Notes: generated from the letters alone by a model not told the origin. A stretch of 64,000 bases of DNA from Dehalococcoidia bacterium (GCA_965201135.1 OZ241751.1:86706-150705); one strand, 5' to 3'; shown: positions 1,688 through 61,645, counted from the stretch's first letter. Numbers and translations: made by a program.

Positions 1688-2231
1688 TACGCGCGCCGGC
1701 GAGTTGGGCCATCTTGACTGCCATTACCTCGGCAAGGACCAGATCGTTGGGAGCAAGAGCCGCCGCTACCTCGTGTCCGTGGTGGACGCCTGCACGCGGC
1801 TGGTTTGGGCGGAGGCGGCGGACGACCTGAAGAGCCTGAGCGTGATGTTCGCGGCGCTCAAGAGCCTCAACCTGCTGAACGCGGAGTACGGGATTCGGTT
1901 CGAGGCCGTGTTGACGGACAACGGGGCGGAGGTGGCCTCGCGGGGGAACGTTGAGGGGCATCCGGTGGAGCGGCTGCTGGGGGAGTTGGGGATCAAGCAT
2001 CGCTACACGCGGCCGTACCGGCCGCAGACGAACGGGAAGGTGGAGCGGTTCTGGCGGACGCTGAACGAGGAGTTGCTGGAGGGGACGACGTTCGAGACGG
2101 CGGAGGAGTTGCGTGAGGAGTTGGCGCTCTACCTGCTGTACTACAACACGGCGCGTCCGCATCAGGGTTTGGGGGGCAAGACGCCCCTCCAGGCCCTGCA
2201 GGATCTGTCAACGAATTACTTGACATCTACA
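1688..2231 (+). mobile_element. 5'-truncated IS481-family copy (integrase-core half only)
   Basis: ORF 1623..2243 matches the C-terminal rve/DDE half of the full copy at 62654..63696 (GELGHLDC..RPYRPQTNGKVERF..ARPHQGLGG). It ends in the same terminal IR, TGTCAACGAATTACTTGACATCTACA (2206..2231). The N-terminal HTH part is absent, and the first residues of the ORF are a read-through of an R1 repeat. Confidence 0.8.
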
Positions 2232-2530
2232 ATTCCCGCGTAAGCGGGAACCTACCCCCAAGCGCCCCGTCATTCCCGCGTAAGCGGGAACCTACCCCCA
2301 AGCGCCCCGTCATTCCCGCGTAAGCGGGAACCTACCCCCAAGCGCCCCGTCATTCCCGCGTAAGCGGGAACCTACCCCCAAGCGCCCCGTCATTCCCGCG
2401 AAAGCGGGAACCTACCTCCACTGCCGTCATTCCCGCGAAGGCGGGAACCTACCTCCACTGCCGTCATTCCCGCGAAGGCGGGAACCTACCCCCTCTACCG
2501 TCATTCCGCGAAAGCGAGACCCTACCCCAC
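2232..2530. repeat. Tandem array of about 8 R1 hairpin units (5 x 40-bp period, then 37-38-bp variants)
   Basis: ATTCCCGCGTAAGCGGGAACCTACCCCCAAGCGCCCCGTC recurs at 2232, 2272, 2312, 2352 and 2392. Variant units with a GAAAG/GAAGG loop follow to about 2530. Confidence 0.9.
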
Positions 2531-2532
2531 CT

Positions 2533-2760
2533 GCGACAAACGCCCCTTGCGCCGCCGCCCCCTCTATCCCTTACGATGGATCACGCCGCGATCAGGCGGC
2601 GCAGGCGGACGCGGACGAGGCAGGCGAGAGGGGGCGCCTCATTCTGCATCATTTCCGCCTCAAATAGCCCCAAACCAGCCCCAAAACCGACTCAAAGGCG
2701 CCTCACGGCGAACCCGGCGCTAGGAGTAAATGAGTCAAAATGATGCAAAATGATGCAGCC
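2533..2760 (+). repeat. R5 repeat family (about 220 bp), copy A, divergent arms
   Basis: Shares GCGACAAACGCCCCTTGCGCCG.. at its start and ..ACCCGGCGCTAGGAGTAAAT near its end with the copies at 35930 and 60284. Its arms carry TGCATCATTT / AAATGATGCA instead of GGCACCATTT / AAATGGTGCC. Confidence 0.6.
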
Positions 2761-4484: not shown

Positions 4485-4621
4485 GTCATTCCCGGCGAAA
4501 GCGGGAACCTACCCCGCGTCCCCGTCCCGCCCCCCGAACGGCGCTGCGTCCCCTTTGCCGTCATTCCGGCGTAGGCCGGAATCCAGAGGCGCGCAAGCGC
4601 CTAGCCCCCCCTCTCCCTATA
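4485..4621. repeat. Mosaic of hairpin repeats (R1, R1 variant, R3 GGCGCGCAAGCGCC, left half of R2)
   Basis: R1 lies at 4485..4513 and an R1 variant (GTCATTCCGGCGTAGGCCGGAATCC) at 4560..4584, followed by R3. The R2 left half CCCCCCTCTCCCTATA ends at 4621, where the IS5 element begins. Confidence 0.8.
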
Positions 4622-5827
4622 GAGACCTTTGCATAACCTTCCGCAATCGCGCACAATGACCGCAACCCGCAACCGCGAGGAGACTGCTATGCATCTCGAA
4701 GCCAGCGACCCCTCCTTCATCGACGCCTTCCTCCCTTTCAACGCAGGCCGCAACGACCGGCTCGACCGCATCGACCGCCTCATCGATTGGCCCAAAGTCG
4801 CAGCCCTACTCGACGATGTCCACGCCGCGCCCGAAGGACGGCCCGCCTACCGCCCGATCACGATGGTCAAGATCATCGTCCTCCAGCAGTGGTACGACTC
4901 CTCCGACGTCGGCATGGAGGAGGCGCTCCAAGACCGGCTGTCGTTCCGCCGCTTCGCGGAGCTCACGCTGACGGACGCGGTTCCCGACCACTCGACGATC
5001 AGCCGGTTTCGGAAGAAGATCACGGAGCGGGGGCTGGCGCGGGCGCTGTTCGCGGAAGTGAATCGGCAGTTGGAGGCGAAGGGCATGCTGGTGAAGCGCG
5101 GAACGCTGATCGACGCGACGATCATCGAGGCGCAGGCGCGGCGCCCGCATTCGGAGGCTGGAGCGCGGAGCGGAACGGACCCCGACGCCGCGTGGACGAA
5201 GAAGGGGAAGAAGTCGCATTTCGGCTACAAGATGCACATAGGGATGGACGCGGGGTCAGGGCTGGTGCGCGGGGTTGAGTTCACGCCTGCGAACGTTGCG
5301 GACACGGATGTTGCGGACGCGCTGATCATGGGGGACGAAGAGGCGGTGTACGCGGACAAGGCGTATGAGTCGAAGGAGCGTCGTGAGCGTCTGCGGGCGC
5401 AGGGCGTGAAGGATCGGATCATGCATCGGGGGCATAAGCATCAGACGGAGCTGCCGCATTGGCAGCGGCGGCGGAACGGGCTGCTGTCGAAGGTTCGGGC
5501 GCCGGTGGAGCAGGTGTTTGGGACGCTGAAGCGCAGCTATGGGTACTGGCGGGTTCGGTACATGGGGCTAATGAGGAACGAGGCGGAGGCGTTGTTCAAG
5601 GCGCTGGCGTACAACCTGCGGCGCGCGGACGGGTTGAGAGAGGGTTGCGCTGTGCATGGGTAGGGGCGTATTGCGCCCGTTGGGGGTACGAGGCCCTGCG
5701 AAGCCCCTAAATTGGGGGCGAGCAGGGGAGGTGGAGGCCGTTATCGGGGGATTTGGGCGGTTGAATGGCTGATTCCGGGGGCGCGGAACTGCCGATCGCG
5801 CTGATGCGAGGGTTATGCAAAGGACTC
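4622..5827 (+). mobile_element. Complete IS5-family insertion sequence (1206 bp)
   Basis: The TIRs GAGACCTTTGCATAACC (4622..4638) and GGTTATGCAAAGGACTC (5811..5827) match at 16 of 17 positions. Flanking 5-bp direct repeats CTATA lie at 4617..4621 and 5828..5832. The interior encodes a DDE transposase. Confidence 0.9.
4689..5663 (+). CDS. IS5-family DDE transposase (InsH-like N-terminal domain + DDE_Tnp_1)
   Basis: RPAYRPITMVKIIVLQQWY..LSFRRF, LIDATIIEA, HFGYKMHIGMD, AVYADKAY and VEQVFGTLKRSYGYWRVRYMGL. The ATG at 4689 follows GAGGAG; the track ORF starts at a TTG at 4629, inside the TIR. Confidence 0.9.
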   Translation: MHLEASDPSFIDAFLPFNAGRNDRLDRIDRLIDWPKVAALLDDVHAAPEGRPAYRPITMVKIIVLQQWYDSSDVGMEEALQDRLSFRRFAELTLTDAVPDHSTISRFRKKITERGLARALFAEVNRQLEAKGMLVKRGTLIDATIIEAQARRPHSEAGARSGTDPDAAWTKKGKKSHFGYKMHIGMDAGSGLVRGVEFTPANVADTDVADALIMGDEEAVYADKAYESKERRERLRAQGVKDRIMHRGHKHQTELPHWQRRRNGLLSKVRAPVEQVFGTLKRSYGYWRVRYMGLMRNEAEALFKALAYNLRRADGLREGCAVHG

Positions 5828-5932
5828 CTATAAGGGGAGAGGACGCCGCGAACGCGGCGGGAGAGGGTACTGCGTAGACGAGGCGCAGCCTCGTCTACGG
5901 GGGCGGGATTCCCGCCTACGCGGGAATGACGG
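5828..5932. repeat. Right half of the IS-split R2 repeat, a GTAGACGAGG/CCTCGTCTAC hairpin, and R1 (reverse)
   Basis: CTATAAGGGGAGAGGACGCCGCGAACGCGGCGGGAGAGGGTACTG lies at 5828..5872 and GGGATTCCCGCCTACGCGGGAATGACGG at 5905..5932. Confidence 0.8.
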
Positions 5933-29636: not shown

Positions 29637-29664
29637 ACAGATTCTCCTCGCATGCGCTCTCAGA

Positions 29665-30696
29665 TCACCGATCGTAGGCCGGAACGGTGTCGATCCACAG
29701 CCCCCCGGTTTCCGCGATGTAGGCGATCTTCTTTACGTCGGCTATGTCCATGCCGTAAGGGATTGCCCTGTAGATTGCGAACTGCTCCCTGTCGGAGTCG
29801 CTGACGTCGCGGCGGTTGTAACTGCTGTAGCGCGCCATCAGGCTCGGCCCCGTCACGTGCCCCATCGCCGTCAGCGCGTGCACCAGTTCGTGCGTGATCG
29901 TCGCGTTCAGGTTGCTGCTTTGCCCCGCCACGACGATGCGCGCGACCGCGAACTTGTGCCGGTAGCGCCACCACTCCGCGTACCCCAGCCGGTCGCTGCC
30001 TAAGAGGTCGTCGTCTCTGAACTCCACGAGGATGGCGTTGTCGCCGAGAACCTCGTTGTAGTTGTCGCGATCGGCCTTGCTCATATCGCTCGCGTCGATC
30101 ACGTTGAACTCGTAGCCAAGCAATTCGCCCAACTGCTCCAGCGCGTTGTCCAGCCTGTTCCTGAAGCCCACCTCCGTGTAGAAGTGAACGTCAATCGTCC
30201 CGGGCCATTTCAGCACGACGTCGAAACGCCAACCGCACGCGCCGTCCGACCCGTCCTCCGGCCTGTCGAAGAAGCAGTTCCACGCCTTCTTCGTCGCGTA
30301 GATCGGCATCGGCGTCGGGGTAGGCGACGGCGTAGGCGTGAAGGTTGGCGTCGCCGTCGGCGTCGGCGTGAGCGTAGGAGTCGGCGACGGCGTAGGCGTA
30401 ATCGTAGGCGTCGCCGTCGGGGTAGGCGTGAGCGTTGGGGTCGGCGACGGCGTGGGCGTGAGCGTTGGCGTCGGGGTAAGCGTCGGCGTGGAGGTGGGAG
30501 TCGCCGTCGGCGTAGGCGTGGGGATTGGCGACGGCGTCGGGGTAAGCGTCGGGGTCGGCGTGAGCGTGAGCGTTGGGGACGGCGCAGGCGCGATCGTGGC
30601 GGTCGGGGGCGGCGTCGGCGTGGGAGCGCTTTGGCAGGCCGCGAGCGCGGCGGCGAGGGAGAGAACGCAGGCGGGAAGGAGGGCGGCGCGGCGCAT
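29665..30696 (-). CDS. Lipoprotein with a long Pro/Thr-rich linker and a C-terminal HExxH putative zinc-metallopeptidase domain
   Basis: Signal + lipobox [21 protein letters not shown]. About 110 aa of PTPT/PSPT repeats, then [14 protein letters not shown]. Confidence 0.6.
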
Positions 30697-30746
30697 AACG
30701 CGAGTCTAGCATAGCTCCGGGTCGCCTCTGCTAGACTGCGCCCGCA

Positions 30747-31886
30747 ATGACTCGCCCCGGCGGCAAAGCGGCCTACGTCTACGCCGACGCGCTTTCGCGC
30801 CACGTCCTGCGCGACGACCATCCGATGCGCCCCGTCCGCCTGCGCCATACGCACGCGCTCCTCGAATCCTACGGCGCGTTCGAGGACGAGCGCGCAATGC
30901 TCGTTCCGCCGCGCCCCGCGACCGTTGAGGAGTTGACGACGTTCCATACGGAGGAGTACGTCGAGGCGGTCAGACGTCTCAGCGGCGGCGAGAACGACCC
31001 GGAGGCGGCGGAGCGGCACGGCTTCTCGGCGGAGGGCGACAACCCCGTCTACGCAGGAATGTACGAGGCGGCGCTGCTCTCGACCGGCGCGTCCGTTCAG
31101 GCGGCGGAGTTGATCGCCGACGGCGCGGCGCAAGCGGCGTTCGCCCCGGCCGGCGGCCTGCACCACGCGATGCGCGGCTGGGCGTCCGGCTTCTGCGTCT
31201 TCAACGACCCGGTCGTCGCCATTAACGCGCTCCGCAAACGCGGCCTCCGCGTCGCCTACGTGGACATTGACGCGCACCATGGCGACGGCGTGCAAGCCGC
31301 CTTCTACCGCGACGCAGACGTTCTCACGATCTCCGTGCACGAGGGCGGGCGGTGGCTCTTCCCCGGCACGGGCGCGGTCGCGGAGACCGGCGCGGGCGAA
31401 GGCGCGGGCTTCTCCGTCAATCTCCCGCTCTTCCCCTACACCGGAGACGACGCGTACCTCGAGGCGTTCGACGCGGTCGTTCCGCCGCTGATCGAGGCGT
31501 TCGCGCCGGACGTTCTCGCCGCGCAACTTGGCGCCGACGCATACGTGAACGATCCGCTGACGCATCTCGCGCTCAGCGCGCAGGGATACGCGGCGGTCGT
31601 GGAGCGCTTGGGCGCGACGGGGCTGCCGTTGCTCGCGTTCGGCGGAGGCGGATACGACCTCGACGCTACGCCGCGCTGCTGGACGCTCGCCTACGGCGTT
31701 ATGCTGGACCGCCATTGGCCGGACGAATTGCCGGAAGGGGCGGACGCCTTTCTGCGGAGCCCGCGCCTGCGGGACGCCGACCCGCCGGCGCTTGACCCGG
31801 CGACGCAGGAGAAGGCGCGGGACTACGCGATGCGGCAAGTCGCCGAGTTGCGGCGGCTCGTCTTTCCCGCGCATGGGCTCGCCTGA
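30747..31886 (+). CDS. Histone deacetylase-superfamily enzyme (AcuC / acetoin-utilisation-type deacetylase)
   Basis: 379 aa with PAGGLHHA, SGFCVFND and VDIDAHHGDGVQAAFY. Confidence 0.85.
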   Translation: MTRPGGKAAYVYADALSRHVLRDDHPMRPVRLRHTHALLESYGAFEDERAMLVPPRPATVEELTTFHTEEYVEAVRRLSGGENDPEAAERHGFSAEGDNPVYAGMYEAALLSTGASVQAAELIADGAAQAAFAPAGGLHHAMRGWASGFCVFNDPVVAINALRKRGLRVAYVDIDAHHGDGVQAAFYRDADVLTISVHEGGRWLFPGTGAVAETGAGEGAGFSVNLPLFPYTGDDAYLEAFDAVVPPLIEAFAPDVLAAQLGADAYVNDPLTHLALSAQGYAAVVERLGATGLPLLAFGGGGYDLDATPRCWTLAYGVMLDRHWPDELPEGADAFLRSPRLRDADPPALDPATQEKARDYAMRQVAELRRLVFPAHGLA

Positions 31887-37913: not shown

Positions 37914-38140
37914 GTCATTCCCGCGTAGGCGGGAATCTCGTATCCACCTCTCTCCAGAGAGGCCGTCGCATAATCTACCGTCATTCCGGCGTAGGCCGGA
38001 ATCCAGAGGCGCGCAAGCGCCGTATTCACCTCTCCCTATAAGGGGAGAGGACGCCGCGTAAGCGGCGGGAGAGGGTACTGGGAACGGCAGCCGAGAGGTT
38101 GCGCAAGGTCTCCCATCGGAGGCAGTTGCATAACCTGCAG
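37914..38140. repeat. Repeat mosaic (R1, CCTCTC/GAGAGG hairpin, R1 variant, R3, R2, degenerate IS5-TIR-like pieces, R1)
   Basis: R1 at 37914..37938, R1 variant + R3 + R2 at 37980..38080, GTTGCGCAAGGTCTCC and GCAGTTGCATAACC at about 38098..38135, then an R1 beginning at 38139. Confidence 0.8.
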
Positions 38141-38237
38141 TCATTCCCGCGTAGGCGGGAACCTCGCCCCCATCGGACGGGGGCGCGTCGCGCCCCGTCC
38201 CCACTACTCCCATCGCCTCCCGCGCGACGCGCCCCGG

Positions 38238-55925: not shown

Positions 55926-56507
55926 CTATTCGGCGGAAGGGTCCTTGCCCTCCCAGCGGCGGAACTTGTCGTTCTCCACGCCGAGGAGGTCGAGAATCTT
56001 GCCGACCGTGTGGTTGATGACGTCGTCAATCGTCTGCGGGCCGGAGTAGAAGCCGGGGATGGGGGGCAGGATCACGCCGCCCATATCGGTGACCGAGAGC
56101 ATATTGAGGAGGTGCCCGCGGTGCAGGGGCGTTTCACGCGCGACGACGATCAGCCGGCGGCGCTCCTTGAGGCACACGTCGGCGGCGCGGGTGATCAGGT
56201 CGTTGTTGTAGGAGTTGGCGATGCCCGCGAGCGTTTTCATCGAGCAGGGAACGACGGCCATGCCGTCCGTCTTAAATGAGCCGCTGGAGACGCTCGCCGC
56301 CATATTGCGCGGATCGTGAACGACGTCGGCCATCGCCTTGATCGCGTCCACCGTCCAGTCCGGCGCCTCGTACTTGATGGAGAGATGCGCCCCTTCCGAC
56401 AGTATGAGGTGCGTCTCGACGTCGGGCGCGTCGCGGAGGGCGCGGAGCGCGTAGACGCCGTAGAGCGGGGCGGACGACCCGGTGATGCCGACGATGATCC
56501 GGCGCAT
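55926..56507 (-). CDS. ubiX: Flavin prenyltransferase UbiX
   Basis: 193 aa with MRRIIVGITGSSAPLYG, PCSMKTLAGIANSYNNDLITRAADVCLKERRRL and PGFY. Confidence 0.88.
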   Translation of the reverse strand: MRRIIVGITGSSAPLYGVYALRALRDAPDVETHLILSEGAHLSIKYEAPDWTVDAIKAMADVVHDPRNMAASVSSGSFKTDGMAVVPCSMKTLAGIANSYNNDLITRAADVCLKERRRLIVVARETPLHRGHLLNMLSVTDMGGVILPPIPGFYSGPQTIDDVINHTVGKILDLLGVENDKFRRWEGKDPSAE

Positions 56508-56729
56508 ATCGCGGATTATACCCGCGCCGCCCTTACCTTGCGTAACTCCTGCCGCCCGCTTTGCGGCGACCTCTCCCGTTCTAGGGCGAGATGGATTCGG
56601 CGTTTGCGCGCAGATAGATTCCCGCGCGGTGTGGGAATGGCGATAGGGTTATGCTAAGGTCTCCGAATCGCCGCGAAACGGGGGGAGGGCGCTGCGGACA
56701 GGAGCCGAGGTTATGCGGAGGTTCTTCCC

Positions 56730-57551
56730 TCAGCCGCCGACGGGGCCGTCGTGGCGTTGCTGGGCGAGCCGGTTGTAGGTTACGGGCGTCGTCGTCAGCA
56801 GGCCGGCGTCGACGGGAAGCGTGACGCCGGTGACCCAGCGCGCCTCGTCGCTGGCGAGGTAGACCGCCGCCCAGGCGACGTCCCACGCCGTGCCCTCCGT
56901 GCCGAGCGGCGCCGCTTCCATGCGGACGCGCCGCAGATCGTCGTCCATTCGAGGCGCGACCATCGGCGTGTAGACGAGGCCGGGCGCGATGCAGTTCACG
57001 CGAATCCCGTCGCGCCCGTGATCGCCCGCCATTGACTTGGTGAGGCCGATGACCGCCGCTTTGGAGGTCGTGTAGGGGGCGCTGCTGTTGGCGCGCAGCC
57101 CCGCGATGGACGAGACGTTGATGATCGCGCCGCCCCCGCTCTTCTTCATCTCGGGAATGGCGCAGCGGGACGCGAGGACGATGCTCTTGACGTTCACGGC
57201 CATAATGTGGTCCCACTGCTCCTCCGTCACTTCGGTGACGTCGGCGCGGGTGGAGACTCCCACGTTGTTGTGGAGGACGTCGAGCCGTCCGTAGCGCTCC
57301 GCCGCGGCGCGCACCATCGCCTCGCAGTCGGCGGCGTTGGCGACGTCGGCGGCGATAGCGAAGGCTTCGCCTCCCTCCTCTTCGATGAGGGCGAGCGTTT
57401 CGTTGGCGCGGTCGAGGTCGCGGTCGGCGAGGAGAACGCGGGCGCCCTCGCGGGCGAAGAGGATCGCGGCGGCTTTGCCGTTGCCGACGCCCTCGCCGCT
57501 CGACCCCGCCCCGGTCACGATGGCCGTCTTGCCCGCCAGCCTGTCCGTCAC
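56730..57551 (-). CDS. Short-chain dehydrogenase/reductase (SDR)
   Basis: 273 aa with TGAGSSGEGVGNG (cofactor-binding), NNVG and SSIAG..YTTSKAAV (catalytic YxxxK). GTG start overlaps the upstream stop. Confidence 0.85.
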   Translation of the reverse strand: MTDRLAGKTAIVTGAGSSGEGVGNGKAAAILFAREGARVLLADRDLDRANETLALIEEEGGEAFAIAADVANAADCEAMVRAAAERYGRLDVLHNNVGVSTRADVTEVTEEQWDHIMAVNVKSIVLASRCAIPEMKKSGGGAIINVSSIAGLRANSSAPYTTSKAAVIGLTKSMAGDHGRDGIRVNCIAPGLVYTPMVAPRMDDDLRRVRMEAAPLGTEGTAWDVAWAAVYLASDEARWVTGVTLPVDAGLLTTTPVTYNRLAQQRHDGPVGG

Positions 57552-58014: not shown

Positions 58015-58254
58015 CAGTACCCTCTCCCGCCGCGTTCGCGGCGTCCTCTCCCCTTGTAGGAGACCTTTGCATAACTCAGTTCTAGCCCGCAATTCCTCTT
58101 GGTGTTAGGAGTGAATTGGGGCGCCCCGGCCCTGCGGCAGGGGGTTATGCAAAGGACTCTGTAGGGAGAGGGGACGCGGGATTCCCGCCTACGCGGGAAT
58201 CCCGGTAGGAGGGGCGCTGGCGCGCCTCTGGATTCCGGCCTACGCCGGAATGAC
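58015..58254. repeat. Repeat mosaic (R2 reverse split by MITE-1, R1 reverse, R3, R1 variant reverse)
   Basis: The R2 reverse halves lie at 58015..58059 and 58160..58170. R1 copies lie at 58178..58202 and 58229..58254. Confidence 0.8.
58060..58159. mobile_element. MITE-1 (100 bp) with IS5-element TIRs
   Basis: GAGACCTTTGCATAAC .. GTTATGCAAAGGACTC. The flanking 5-bp direct repeat is TGTAG (58055..58059 and 58160..58164). No ORF. Confidence 0.85.
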
Positions 58255-58266
58255 GGCACAGGGCGC

Positions 58267-59640
58267 TTACGCTCCGGCGGGCGCGGGGCGCTCGCCGAGC
58301 GCGGCGATGAGTTCGGCGGTGTGCAGGACGCCGAGCCGGAAGTAGTCGAGGCGAATGTTCTCGTTCGGCGCGTGGATGCGGTTGCCGGGATAGTCAATGC
58401 CGCAGGAGGAGACGGGGACGCCGAGTATATGCTGCACGGGATGCTGCGGCCCGGTGCCGGTCATGCTCGGCATAAAGTAGGCGTCGCTTCCGTAGACGCT
58501 GCGGGCAGTCTCCGCGACGAGCGCGACGAACGGGTCGTCGAGCGGCGTGCGCGAGGGGCGCTCCGCGCTGAGGACGGAGACCTCGACGTCGCTGAAGCCG
58601 TGGGCGTCGAGATGCTTGCGGAGGCTCGCCGTAATCTCGTCGGGGTCTTGGTTGGGGACGAGGCGGAAGTCCATCTTCGCCGTCGCCGTAGCGGGCGTGA
58701 CCGTCTTGGCGCCCGCGCCGGTGTAGCCGGAGCCGAATCCCGCGATGTTGGCGGTGGGCTCCATAATGAGGCGGCGGCGGAATTCGTAGCCCGACGCCTC
58801 GCCGACGGCCATCTCGACGCCCAAGTCGTGCAGGAACTCGCGGGAGGTGTCGGGCAGGCCGGCGATGGCCTCGATCTCGCGCTCGAGGGCGGGGCGGACG
58901 CTGTCGTAGAAGCCGGGCACCGCGACGCGCTCGGCCGGGTCTTTGAGCGTGTTGAGCGCCCACACGAGGCGCCACGCCGGATTCGGCACGACGGGCGCGT
59001 AGGAGGAGTGCGAGTCGGTCGCGGCGGAGCGGCACGTCAACTCCACGTAGAGCAGCCCCTTGACGCCGAGCGTGATGAGCGGGCGCCCGTCCCAGTTGAC
59101 GCCGCCGCCTTCCCAAACGCAGGCGTCTGCCCGCAGGCGGTCGGCGTTCGCCTCGACGAAGTCGTGGAAGCCCGGGCTGCCGATCTCCTCCGCGCCCTCC
59201 ATGCACCAGCGAATCGTCACCGGCAGTTCGCCGACGGTCTCGCGGACGGCGCGGACGGCGGCGAGGCGCGCGATGATGGGGCCTTTGTCGTCCGAGACGC
59301 CGCGCCCGTAGAGATAGCCGCCGCGCTCCGTCGGCTCGAACGGGGGCGTTTCCCACTCGTCGAGCGGGTCGGGCGGCTGAACGTCGTAGTGGTTGTAGAA
59401 GAGGAGCGTCTTGTCGGAGGCGCCCTTCAGTTCGGCGATGATGCCGGGGTAGTCCGGGTCGGCGGTGGGGACGAGTTCGGCGTCGAAGCCGGCGTCGCGC
59501 AGCATATCGACCGTCATTTCGCCGCACTCGCGGACGCCGACGCGCTGCGCGCTCACGCTCGGCTGGCGCGTGAGCGTCTTGAGGCGCTCGATCGTCTCCG
59601 GAAGATGGGCGTCTATGTGGTCGGCGACGGCCTGTCGCAT
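58267..59640 (-). CDS. M20-family metallopeptidase (dipeptidase/deacylase type)
   Basis: The ATG at 59640 gives MRQAVADHIDAHLPETIERLKTL. Motifs are LLFYNHYDVQP, GRGVSDDKG and MEGAEEIGS. The track ORF to 59901 is an Arg-rich spurious extension. Confidence 0.85.
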   Translation of the reverse strand: MRQAVADHIDAHLPETIERLKTLTRQPSVSAQRVGVRECGEMTVDMLRDAGFDAELVPTADPDYPGIIAELKGASDKTLLFYNHYDVQPPDPLDEWETPPFEPTERGGYLYGRGVSDDKGPIIARLAAVRAVRETVGELPVTIRWCMEGAEEIGSPGFHDFVEANADRLRADACVWEGGGVNWDGRPLITLGVKGLLYVELTCRSAATDSHSSYAPVVPNPAWRLVWALNTLKDPAERVAVPGFYDSVRPALEREIEAIAGLPDTSREFLHDLGVEMAVGEASGYEFRRRLIMEPTANIAGFGSGYTGAGAKTVTPATATAKMDFRLVPNQDPDEITASLRKHLDAHGFSDVEVSVLSAERPSRTPLDDPFVALVAETARSVYGSDAYFMPSMTGTGPQHPVQHILGVPVSSCGIDYPGNRIHAPNENIRLDYFRLGVLHTAELIAALGERPAPAGA

Positions 59641-59666
59641 CGTGTCGCTCCTTTGCGGCGGGGCGC

Positions 59667-60176
59667 CTACGCCTTGCCGCGCCGCTGCCTGCGCCGTTCG
59701 GCGCGCGTCTCGTGAATAATGGGCCAAACGGACTCCGCCTCGCACTCCTCGCCCTCGCCGGCGTCGCGCAAGTCGGTCAGATAGACCTCGCGGGCGGGGT
59801 CGCCGGAGGCTTGGACGTCGTTGGCGTGCATCCACGAATGGACGGCGCGGTGGGCTTGGGCGATCTCCTCGTGCGGGCCGCGGTATCTGGCGACGGCGCA
59901 CTTGCCGCCGGGAATCGCGCCCGGCGCCACGCGCCCGTTGCCCTCGACGTCGGCCTCGACCGGGTAGCCGACTTCGAAGTCCACGAGGAAGGCGCCGACT
60001 TCGTAGTAGACGCCGACGCCGGGCCCGGCGGGGCGCGCGCCCACGGAGTCCAGGTACTCCGCCGCCTCGCGCAGGAGTTGCGCGACCTTCGGAGTCACCT
60101 TGTTAATGGTGGTCTTGGCGCGAATCGCCGCGATCTTCTGCGGCTTGCAGTCGCGTATTTCGATGCCGAAGTCCAC
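59667..60176 (-). CDS. GyrI-like small-molecule-binding domain protein
   Basis: 169 aa with a two-repeat beta-alpha-beta-beta pattern (IRDCKPQKIAAIR..; GKCAVARYRGPHEEIAQAHRAVHSWM). Confidence 0.6.
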   Translation of the reverse strand: MDFGIEIRDCKPQKIAAIRAKTTINKVTPKVAQLLREAAEYLDSVGARPAGPGVGVYYEVGAFLVDFEVGYPVEADVEGNGRVAPGAIPGGKCAVARYRGPHEEIAQAHRAVHSWMHANDVQASGDPAREVYLTDLRDAGEGEECEAESVWPIIHETRAERRRQRRGKA

Positions 60177-60283
60177 GCCGTCCGTCCCTCCTACGGAGCC
60201 TTGCGCCGTCTATTGTACTCTTCCGGCGAGCGGCGGGCGGGGCGGACAGAGCGAGCGGACGGCGCGCGCCTTTAACTTTAAAA

Positions 60284-60508
60284 GTGGCACCATTTGGCAC
60301 TATTTGGCACCATTTACTCCTACGCCCCGGCGGGCGATGGGGCCAGATTGAGGCGTTTTGGGGACGAAACAAGGCCGGCATGAGGCCGAAATGGGGCCAA
60401 ATGGAGCCACCACGTCAGGGGGCATCCAATCCGCCGCCGGGTTCAAGCGCTGGGTCATAAGGACAGCGTAGGGGAGAGGCGGCGGACGGCGCAAGGGGTG
60501 TTTGTCGC
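60284..60508 (-). repeat. R5 repeat family (about 220 bp), copy C (inverted relative to A and B)
   Basis: The arms are GTGGCACCATTTGGCACTATTTGGCACCATTT (60284..60315) and AAATGGGGCCAAATGGAGCCAC (60389..60410). ATTTACTCCTACGCC is the reverse of GGCG.TAGGAGTAAAT. The far end, GGGGTGTTTGTCGC, is the reverse of GCGACAAACACCCC. Confidence 0.7.
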
Positions 60509-60519
60509 GGTTGGGGTAG

Positions 60520-60792
60520 GGTAGGTTCCCGCTTTCGCGGGAATGGCGTGGCCCGGGGGTTATGGGGAGACGGGGCTAATGCCCCGTCTGTGGCGCTTGC
60601 GCGCCGAATGGATTTCTGCCTACGGAGACCTTTGCATAACTTCCTGCCGCAGGGCCGGGGCACCCCAATTCACTCCTAACAGCAGGAGGAATTGCAGGCT
60701 GGAACTGAGTTATGCAAAGGTCTCCTACGCAGGAATGACGGCACAGTGGGCGCTACGCGATGGGGGTAGGTTCCTGCCTACGCGGGAATGAC
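60520..60792. repeat. Repeat mosaic (R1 reverse, R4, R1 split by MITE-2, R1 reverse)
   Basis: R1 at 60520..60547 and R4 at about 60565..60590. The split R1 lies at 60610..60624 plus 60725..60741. A further R1 lies at 60764..60792. Confidence 0.8.
60625..60724. mobile_element. MITE-2 (100 bp), inverted relative to MITE-1
   Basis: GAGACCTTTGCATAAC .. GTTATGCAAAGGTCTC. The flanking direct repeat is CTACG (60620..60624 and 60725..60729). The interior is the reverse complement of the MITE-1 interior with a few substitutions. Confidence 0.85.
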
Positions 60793-60850: not shown

Positions 60851-61645
60851 CTAGTCGCGCGCAACCAGCGCACGGACGAACGCCTCCGCGCGCGGCGCGG
60901 CCTCGCCGGGCGGGGCGGCGCCTATCGCGTCAATGAGCGCGCTGCCGACGGCCGCCGCGTCGGCGATTTCCCCCACACGCTCCACGTGCCGGCGCTCCGA
61001 AACGCCGAAACCGACGGCGACGGGGAGGCTCGTATGCCGCCGAACGCGCTCGACGAAGCCGGGGAGGTCGTCCGGCAGGTCGCTCCGCGCTCCGGTGACG
61101 CCGGCGACGCTGACGCAGTAGACGAAGCCGTCGGAGGCGGCGCAGCCGAGCGCGACGCGGTCGTCGGTGCTCGTGGGTGCGAGCATGCTCACGAGCCCCA
61201 AGCCTCGCTTATGGAGGGCGTCCCGCAGTTCGCCGGCCTCGTCGGGCGGCAAGTCGGGGACGAGGAGAGCGTCCACGCCGGCCTCCGCGCAATCGGCGGC
61301 GTAGTCGGCGGGGCCGTAGCGGAGAATGGGGTTGTAGTAGCCCATAAAGACGAGGGGGGCGGCGACGCCGGCCCGCCTGAGCGCGCGGACGGCGTCGAGG
61401 CAGCCTCGCGCGGTCATTCCGCCTTGCAGGGCGCGATGGCTCGCCGCCTGGATCGTCGGGCCGTCCGCGAGCGGGTCGCTGTACGGAACGCCGAGTTCGA
61501 TGGCGTCGGCGCCCGCCCGCTCAATGGCGGGGACGACGGCGAGCGTGTCCTCGATCGTGGGGAACCCGATGGCGACGTAGGGAATGACGGCGGTTCGCCG
61601 TTCCTGCCGCGCGGCGGCCAGTGCGTGTTCGAGGCGGTCGAGCAT
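60851..61645 (-). CDS. trpA: Tryptophan synthase alpha chain
   Basis: 264 aa with IPYVAIGFP, GADAIELGVPYSDPLADGPTIQ and VGFGVS. Confidence 0.9.
   Translation of the reverse strand: MLDRLEHALAAARQERRTAVIPYVAIGFPTIEDTLAVVPAIERAGADAIELGVPYSDPLADGPTIQAASHRALQGGMTARGCLDAVRALRRAGVAAPLVFMGYYNPILRYGPADYAADCAEAGVDALLVPDLPPDEAGELRDALHKRGLGLVSMLAPTSTDDRVALGCAASDGFVYCVSVAGVTGARSDLPDDLPGFVERVRRHTSLPVAVGFGVSERRHVERVGEIADAAAVGSALIDAIGAAPPGEAAPRAEAFVRALVARD

Follow-up and report, generated by a model that had tools for sequence, protein, structure and literature searches.

Two 100-bp elements beside an M20 peptidase and a GyrI-like gene

The window, that is, the whole 64,000-nucleotide stretch of DNA that was analysed, has a G+C content of 67%, and homologues of its M20 peptidase (~78% identity) carry the NCBI name "Dehalococcoidia bacterium"; the source is accordingly treated as a Dehalococcoidia-like (Chloroflexota) bacterium that has not been cultured. 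Two of its proteins had no identical counterpart in an exact-match index. The genes and elements around the two 100-bp elements, named MITE-1 and MITE-2, are as follows.

55926-56507, minus strand: flavoprotein gene
56730-57551, minus strand: short-chain dehydrogenase gene
58017..58173, minus strand: palindromic repeat R2, reversed, its loop split by MITE-1; an intact counterpart is present in the related locus L025
58055..58059: TGTAG, left copy of the MITE-1 target duplication
58060..58159, plus strand: MITE-1, 100 bp, a MITE-A copy that aligns end to end with the four others
58160..58164: TGTAG, right copy of the MITE-1 target duplication
58267 to ~59640, minus strand: M20 peptidase gene
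59667-60176, minus strand: GyrI-like gene
60610..60739: R1-type hairpin GGATTTCTGC CTACG CAGGAATGAC, its loop split by MITE-2; its counterpart at the corresponding place in L025 is empty
60620..60624: CTACG, left copy of the MITE-2 target duplication
60625..60724, minus strand: MITE-2, 100 bp, a MITE-A copy opposite to MITE-1
60725..60729: CTACG, right copy of the MITE-2 target duplication
60851-61645, minus strand: TrpA gene

MITE-1 lies 103 bp 3' (downstream) of the M20 stop codon, and MITE-2 lies 122 bp 3' (downstream) of the TrpA stop codon. A previous reading of the sequence alone (the sequence-only reading) had proposed two elements of exactly 100 bp bearing the 16-nt ends of an IS5-family insertion sequence (IS) found elsewhere in the window, and the coordinates 58060..58159 and 60625..60724 were confirmed. 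The left end of MITE-1 is GAGACCTTTGCATAAC and its right end, read on the other strand, is GAGTCCTTTGCATAAC; its terminal inverted repeats agree at 15 of 16 positions, the right end reading GAGTCC as in the IS. MITE-2 has GAGACC at both ends, and 18/18 of its terminal bases are complementary. The two were found to be near reverse complements, as had been proposed: once MITE-2 is reverse-complemented, 8 of its 100 positions disagree with MITE-1 (92% identity), compared with 49 differences when both are read in the same orientation. Given this 8% divergence, the pair does not stem from a single very recent burst. The proposed lack of coding capacity was likewise borne out for both.

Folding produced the long hairpin that the sequence-only reading had raised for each MITE. 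MITE-1 and MITE-2 fold into hairpins closed by their ends, with free energies of -50 to -53 kcal/mol and z scores of -5.7 to -6.7.

An intact IS5-family element with the same ends

The IS lies near the start of the window, within another copy of R2.

4610..4621, plus strand: left arm of R2 and CTATA (left duplication copy, 4617..4621)
4622..5827, plus strand: intact IS5-family IS, 1,206 bp, identified from sequence reading, end search and transposase profiles
4689..5663, plus strand: transposase gene, 324 aa, identified with Pfam and NCBIfam profiles
5828..5870, plus strand: CTATA (right duplication copy, 5828..5832) and the remainder of R2

The left end of the IS is GAGACCTTTGCATAACC and the right end, on the opposite strand, is GAGTCCTTTGCATAACC; CTATA borders the element at 4617-4621 and 5828-5832. 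The terminal inverted repeats match at 16/17 positions (15/16 over 16 nt), the right end reading GAGTCC. The proposal that all three elements carry the same 16-nt ends thus held for the sharing of the ends with the IS, but the inverted repeats of the IS and of MITE-1 were not perfect. The transposase matched the NCBIfam profile transpos_IS5_4 with 316.8 bits (1.3e-94; cut-off, 140) and the Pfam profiles DDE_Tnp_1 (1.6e-32) and DUF772 (1e-25). With one ORF, a length of 1,206 bp and terminal inverted repeats, the element has the make-up of an IS5-family member.

P0001, a homologue of the transposase, matches the whole 324-aa protein of the window at 98% identity and is encoded five times, in identical copies, on the 2.96-Mb contig ctg394339 (ena:ERZ25070167). 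In their overlap (window 29664-30988 versus L014), the DNA of this contig and that of the window are ~95% identical. Among plasmid-borne relatives the closest transposase is less than 48% identical. At the DNA level the IS is 92-96% identical to six copies elsewhere, five in ctg394339 and one (L019, transposase 93% identical) in another assembly, all of which have flanking duplications; together with the window copy these form the IS set (n = 7). The five copies with an identical protein on the near-relative contig point to recent activity of the IS.

Copies of the elements in relatives were counted in 126 kb around IS copies; these loci were chosen via the IS gene, and copy densities in them need not be representative of the genome. 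Three further copies of the 100-bp element were present in this material, all in pieces of the near-relative contig.

L014:4602-4712: MITE-A copy, 111 bp
L017:16589-16700: MITE-A copy, 112 bp
L018:7132-7231: MITE-A copy, 100 bp

With the two in the window, they make up the MITE-A set (n = 5). The three are 86-93% identical to MITE-1 by BLAST over the aligned stretches, and MAFFT aligned all five copies (100-112 bp) over their full length, with an internal duplication of 11-12 bp in two of the three from relatives. None of the MITE-A copies holds a transposase gene or coding capacity. The flanking duplication is a perfect CTACA in L018 and has one mismatch in L017 (CTATA versus CTACA); the L014 copy has 2 extra bp (TC) ahead of its right-hand duplication.

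The consensus of the five copies folds into an end stem and one invariant inner hairpin, in which no informative covariation was found among the five sequences; a selected RNA is not claimed for MITE-A. Rfam gave zero matches for the elements or the repeats, a sigma-70 promoter scan found nothing, and a terminator scan gave one match, below the shuffle mean.

The end 16-mer GAGWCCTTTGCATAAC, allowing three or fewer mismatches, matched the window eight times against an expected 0.28, and 0 of 100 shuffles reached eight. The ends were not restricted to the IS and the two MITEs, the three loci first reported; further copies with duplications were found elsewhere. MITE-1 repeats even the asymmetric right end of the IS, 18 nt GGGTTATGCAAAGGACTC (GGACTC), and behind the end comes a short subterminal motif, (C)TTCC(T)GC, which the IS has in common with MITE-A and with a second family, MITE-B (see below). 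Identity between MITE-A and the IS is confined to the terminal 16-19 nt, beyond which blastn-short detected no similarity. The earlier suggestion that the MITEs derive from the IS was therefore upheld in respect of the ends but not in respect of internal deletion: because similarity is limited to the ends, MITE-A is regarded as a partner with the same ends as the IS, for which an origin by internal deletion is not demonstrable.

MITE-A has the size of a MITE, lacks a transposase gene, bears terminal inverted repeats that match those of an IS, is bordered by target duplications, recurs in homologous form at unrelated loci and, as described below, shows presence/absence polymorphism, and we refer to its copies as MITEs on these grounds.

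Insertion into the loops of palindromic repeats

The spacers of the window contain repeats of three kinds, R1, R2 and R3, which are short imperfect extragenic palindromes, numerous and grouped into mosaic arrays of variable composition, and which accordingly resemble repeats of the REP/BIME type. As proposed, MITE-1 splits the loop of an R2 copy, with TGTAG perfect on both sides, and MITE-2 splits the loop of an R1 hairpin, with CTACG perfect on both sides. On the R2-forward strand the R2 insertion site reads CCTCTCC-CTAYA-AGGGGAGAGG, and the R1 site reads ATTCCCGC-CTACG-CGGGAAT. The IS minus one copy of its duplication gives an intact R2 sequence, and the pre-insertion sequence expected for R2 and for R1 is seen in their intact copies at other places in the window. 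R2 arms were considered as a part of the element and rejected, as empty R2 copies exist in the window and in L025.

The IS and MITE-A sets together give 12 insertions. Within the R2 loop, one and the same 5-bp site was hit by 7/7 IS copies and 4/5 MITE-A copies, that is, by 11/12 insertions, the elements facing either way relative to R2; the sole R1-loop insertion among the 12 is MITE-2, in a CTACG loop. A relative with a 76%-identical transposase also lies inside an R2-like hairpin, CCCTCTCC...GGGAGAGGG. The duplications of the seven IS copies are CTATA, TGTAG, TGTAG, TATAG, CTATA, CTATA(A) and CTAGA. Of the 12 insertions, 10 have a 5-bp duplication and one a duplication of 6 bp (CTATAA, at the IS copy 9934..11139 in L018, the same place as L012), and the CTA core is kept. 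A 5-bp duplication was adopted as the only length in agreement with every copy; under a 4-bp model, the element would have to end in a different outermost base at each target. The target rule CTAYR, put forward from the three insertions of the window, holds for the copies checked except the one IS copy with CTAGA.

We propose that the 100-bp elements are, very probably, non-autonomous elements that share their ends with the IS and are moved in trans by an IS5-family transposase into the loops of the repeats. The DDE transposase of the IS would bind the shared MITE ends in trans and, with cuts offset by 5 bp at a CTA-Y/G-R pentamer, would insert the MITE in the way in which it inserts the IS. 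This pentamer would lie in the loop of REP-like intergenic palindromes, R2 being strongly preferred and R1 used occasionally, and repair of the staggered cuts would produce the 5-bp duplications. The IS at 4622..5827 is the presumed source of transposase for the MITEs; that this very enzyme mobilises them is most likely, as judged from the shared ends only. Insertion into extragenic hairpins is probably nearly harmless.

The sequence-only reading had described the targets as hairpin loops. This was true of all copies, but not in the sense of any hairpin loop: R1 loops outnumber R2 loops, yet R2 takes 11/12, so that the preference is for R2 specifically. A pattern search found at least 7 intact R2 copies in the window, with ~7-8 free R2 loops, and at least 13 R1 copies, while intact R1 hairpins with a free CTACG loop numbered 15. 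At the p(R2) of ~0.385 computed from the free-loop counts, R2 would receive at least 11 of 12 insertions with a probability of ~2e-4.

An alternative is that the transposase recognises a structure, such as a cruciform that has been extruded or a hairpin in single-stranded DNA, for instance at a replication fork, with CTAYR playing a secondary part. R2 and R1 have unrelated stems and both are hit in or at the loop, and both fold strongly as single strands: -18.2 kcal/mol (z, -5.2) for an R2-containing stretch of two adjacent hairpins at 38020-38085 and -16.4 kcal/mol (z, -6.1) for the R1 hairpin at 58176-58205. Yet the insertion point is fixed to the R2 sequence and sits 1.5 nt off the axis of the R2 hairpin whichever way the element faces, and R1, which folds at least as well and is more numerous, received 1/12 insertions. 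An extended motif, CCTAYRNGGG, is moreover common to the R1 and R2 targets, and 20/22 of its occurrences in the window are these hairpins; sequence alone could thus explain the choice. We consider recognition of structure unlikely, while giving it real weight; with the present data, recognition of sequence and recognition of structure cannot be separated.

Near-random insertion at CTAYR, with selection sparing only the harmless insertions in hairpins, was considered very improbable. All copies are intergenic, in an apparently gene-dense genome with short spacers full of repeats, as such selection would predict, but a bias of this kind would scatter insertions over intergenic space and R1 loops rather than place 11/12 at the same 5 bp of R2, and the loops of hairpins with a stem of 6 bp or more hold just 25 of the 344 CTAYR sites in the window. 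We infer that the target is probably chosen by the transposase and not by selection after insertion.

Some further features of the repeats were observed. R2, for example at 38028..38078, contains three CTCTCC/GGAGAG motifs around a second small hairpin, CGCCGCG..CGCGGCG, which makes two alternative pairings possible. The tail of R2, GAGGGTACTGCGGTC, is loosely like the right end of the IS, GAGGGTTATGCAAAGGTC, a likeness that may be due to chance. At 2230..2550 of the window, overlapping matches to the R-type arrays of relatives suggest a tandem palindromic block.

Empty sites and gene order

The related locus L025 comes from the same sample as ctg394339 and is 92% identical to the window over 58213-60576. 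The GyrI-like gene and the M20 gene again form a pair there, among the same repeat arrays, and MITEs are absent. At the place of MITE-1, the R2 downstream of M20 is unbroken in L025 (CCTCTCCCCTTATAGGGAGAGG), and at the place of MITE-2, the R1 upstream of the GyrI-like gene is unbroken (GGGATTCCCGCCTACGCGGGAATGACGG). Both sites being empty in this 92%-identical relative, both insertions in the window are polymorphic. The empty sites were read by eye, as MAFFT misaligns the repeat arrays, and the arrays of the window and of L025 differ by whole repeat units. As gene order breaks just past R2, the empty R2 site is anchored on a single side.

The gene pair (window 58180..60198) is 92-97% identical between the window, L020 and L025 and has different neighbours in each of them. 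L020 is 96.5% identical over the pair, with gene order broken on both sides, and so provides no empty-site control. The breaks in gene order fall inside repeat arrays. At the breakpoint in L020, beside half an R2, are 110 bp left over from the left end of the IS (L020:5222-5332).

The changing neighbours of the pair, and the fact that two inverted MITEs bracket it, would suit a composite transposon that had brought in the 2.46-kb segment with these two genes. Each MITE is, however, flanked by a separate perfect duplication, and the outer flanks differ (TGTAG versus CTACG) where a composite transposon would be enclosed by a single outer duplication; L025, in addition, has the gene pair with the same arrays but without MITEs. 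The composite transposon was rejected as extremely unlikely. It is scarcely credible that the 100-bp units are chance similarities or immobile variants of the host repeats, plentiful as palindromic repeats are in this genome, for this is refuted by the match to the IS ends far above chance, by the perfect duplications, by a MITE-A core unrelated to the R repeats and by hairpins that are interrupted in the window where intact copies, and the empty sites of L025, run on.

Upstream of the GyrI-like gene, the window has a low-G+C intergenic stretch at 60270..60412, conserved in L025 at ~5180-5380. GGCACYATTT occurs in it as three direct repeats, followed after ~70 nt by two inverted copies of AAATGG type (three of AATGG type in L025). 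The stretch resembles a set of protein-binding sites.

A second family of elements with R-type cores

Degenerate ends elsewhere in the window belong to elements of, or resembling, another family, MITE-B.

37959..38112, plus strand: degenerate MITE-B-like element, consisting of a left-end-like piece (4 mismatches), R1, R3, R2 and a right-end-like piece, GGTTGCGCAAGGTCTC, at 38097..38112
38119..38165, plus strand: start of a second, adjacent MITE-B-like remnant, with the left end GAGGCAGTTGCATAACC (3 mismatches in the first 16 nt) followed directly by an R1 hairpin
56532..56663, minus strand: degenerate MITE-B, 132 bp, its layout matching the intact copy L022:136-277

Older remnants of the ends had been suspected at 38098..38135. 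Degenerate ends are indeed present there; read exactly, 38097..38135 comprises a right end, 6 bp and a left end and is the junction of two adjacent degenerate elements. The element at 56532..56663, between the flavoprotein and short-chain dehydrogenase genes, is closed by an end at 56647..56663 that the sequence-only reading had not listed. This end is near perfect (1 mismatch), that at 56532..56546 is decayed, and the core consists of R1-, R3- and R2-like hairpins.

The intact copy, L022:136-277, is 142 bp long and has perfect ends and a TTCTG duplication; it lies inside an R2-like loop, and its own core is built of R1 and R3 hairpins. A MITE-B-like element is also present in another Dehalococcoidia metagenome-assembled genome (MAG) (L005:1123-1227), and ~10 recurrent junctions of an element end and an R1 hairpin were found across loci. 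A MITE-B nhmmer profile gave 58 hits, most of them to the core only, without ends.

These observations raise the rather doubtful possibility that the R1-R3-R2 arrays, besides serving as landing pads, are cargo of MITE-B, spread between IS5-type ends, each copy supplying new R2 loops for the IS, MITE-A and MITE-B. The intact L022 copy, the L005 element and the end-R1 junctions would support such a reading, and the lack of any ends in most R arrays counts against it; the R arrays may descend from MITE-B, or MITE-B may have captured an array. If the cargo reading is true, one DDE transposase would run a self-reinforcing safe-haven system, and REP-like mosaics would have an origin independent of RAYT.

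Two loci showed one element end each. At L018:9202-9217 (the same place as L012:1702-1717), a perfect end flanked by CGTAG abuts the 3' end of a tRNA-like sequence, and a partner end was not found there at three or fewer mismatches. At L022:6289-6500, an insertion of ~115 bp has an element end on one side only and is flanked by a direct host duplication of ~40 bp (CATCGGGAGAGGGGGGTAGGGCATGGGGCCGGGGCGTGG), far beyond a normal target duplication.

Wider distribution of the ends

Genome collections were scanned with a pattern of end, 55-85 nt and end, the gap of which excludes the 142-bp MITE-B. The scan returned seven loci (L001-L007) and zero MITE-A copies; in each, the exact ends GAGACCTTTGCATAAC...GTTATGCAAAGGTCTC bracket a short element with an unrelated core, the bracketed stretches being 88-100 bp long. 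The loci come from Desulfobacterales, Nitrospinales, Dehalococcoidia and Gammaproteobacteria MAGs of 34-63% G+C. Duplications of 5 bp were seen in L006 (AACAT) and L007 (AACAC), and an apparent duplication of 9 bp in L003 (TTTATTGAG). The same pattern scan of JGI metagenomes gave one locus, a duplicate of one from the genome scan, and again zero MITE-A copies. Transposases 63-76% identical to that of the window carry identical element ends, and because these relatives and the other MAGs share them, the ends are those of a broad IS5-family lineage rather than of this genome alone.

Comparison with known systems

In the IS5 subgroup (ISfinder), ends start with GA or GG and the target has a CTA core, as in this IS, which also agrees with IS5 of Escherichia coli and its subgroup in transposase family (NCBIfam transpos_IS5_4) and approximate length. 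IS5 proper (ISfinder) makes a 4-bp duplication at YTAR, whereas the duplication here is 5 bp (CTAYR or CTAGA), which would place the IS outside the IS5 subgroup in the strict sense.

Several IS that insert into REP or BIME sequences have been described, namely, IS1397 and ISKpn1 (IS3), IS621, ISPpu9 and ISPpu10 (IS110) and ISRm22 (IS4) (Tobes and Pareja 2006, PMC1525189). All or nearly all copies of these lie inside an extragenic palindrome at a fixed position, as here, and the transposase is thought to set the specificity (PMC1525189). They belong to other families; in the present case it is an IS5-family DDE element, accompanied by a MITE partner that shares its target. With 7/7 IS copies at the same 5 bp of R2, the association is of "type 1" in the terms of Tobes and Pareja 2006. 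The IS5-family element of Neisseria meningitidis linked to REP-bearing spaces, ISNm1106/IS1106, has this link in 4/7 and 7/14 copies, as "type 2" only, which denotes a preference for REP-containing spaces (PMC1525189), in contrast to the 7/7 copies inside the repeat at the same 5 bp found here.

Among prokaryotic MITEs, those with the ends of a resident IS form a standard category (reviewed in Minnick 2024, PMC10969869). The MITE-A elements agree with these in their small size, terminal inverted repeats, duplications, lack of a transposase gene, intergenic location, presence in several copies and variation in size between copies (100-112 bp). They differ in having a core unrelated to the partner IS and in being nested strictly in the loop of a single palindromic repeat, for which a keyword search of that article gave no match (PMC10969869). 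QMITE2 of Coxiella burnetii, the truncated copies of which come to look like REPs on losing their ends (PMC10969869), offers a parallel to the degenerate MITE-B with R-type cores, with the difference that here the R arrays may instead have been captured between ends.

The combination of REP-loop targeting and an end-sharing MITE in an IS5-family element is thus the finding, rather than a new kind of mobile element. It adds a documented case of an IS5-family element and MITE partner inserting at one fixed position of a palindromic repeat to the loose IS5-REP link of the 2006 survey (PMC1525189). Recognition of sequence versus structure becomes directly testable with this system, as the stems of its two natural targets differ and their loop motif is common to both. 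Part of the dense intergenic repeat landscape of uncultured Dehalococcoidia-like bacteria is hereby explained, and the arrays that compose it mark breaks in gene order.
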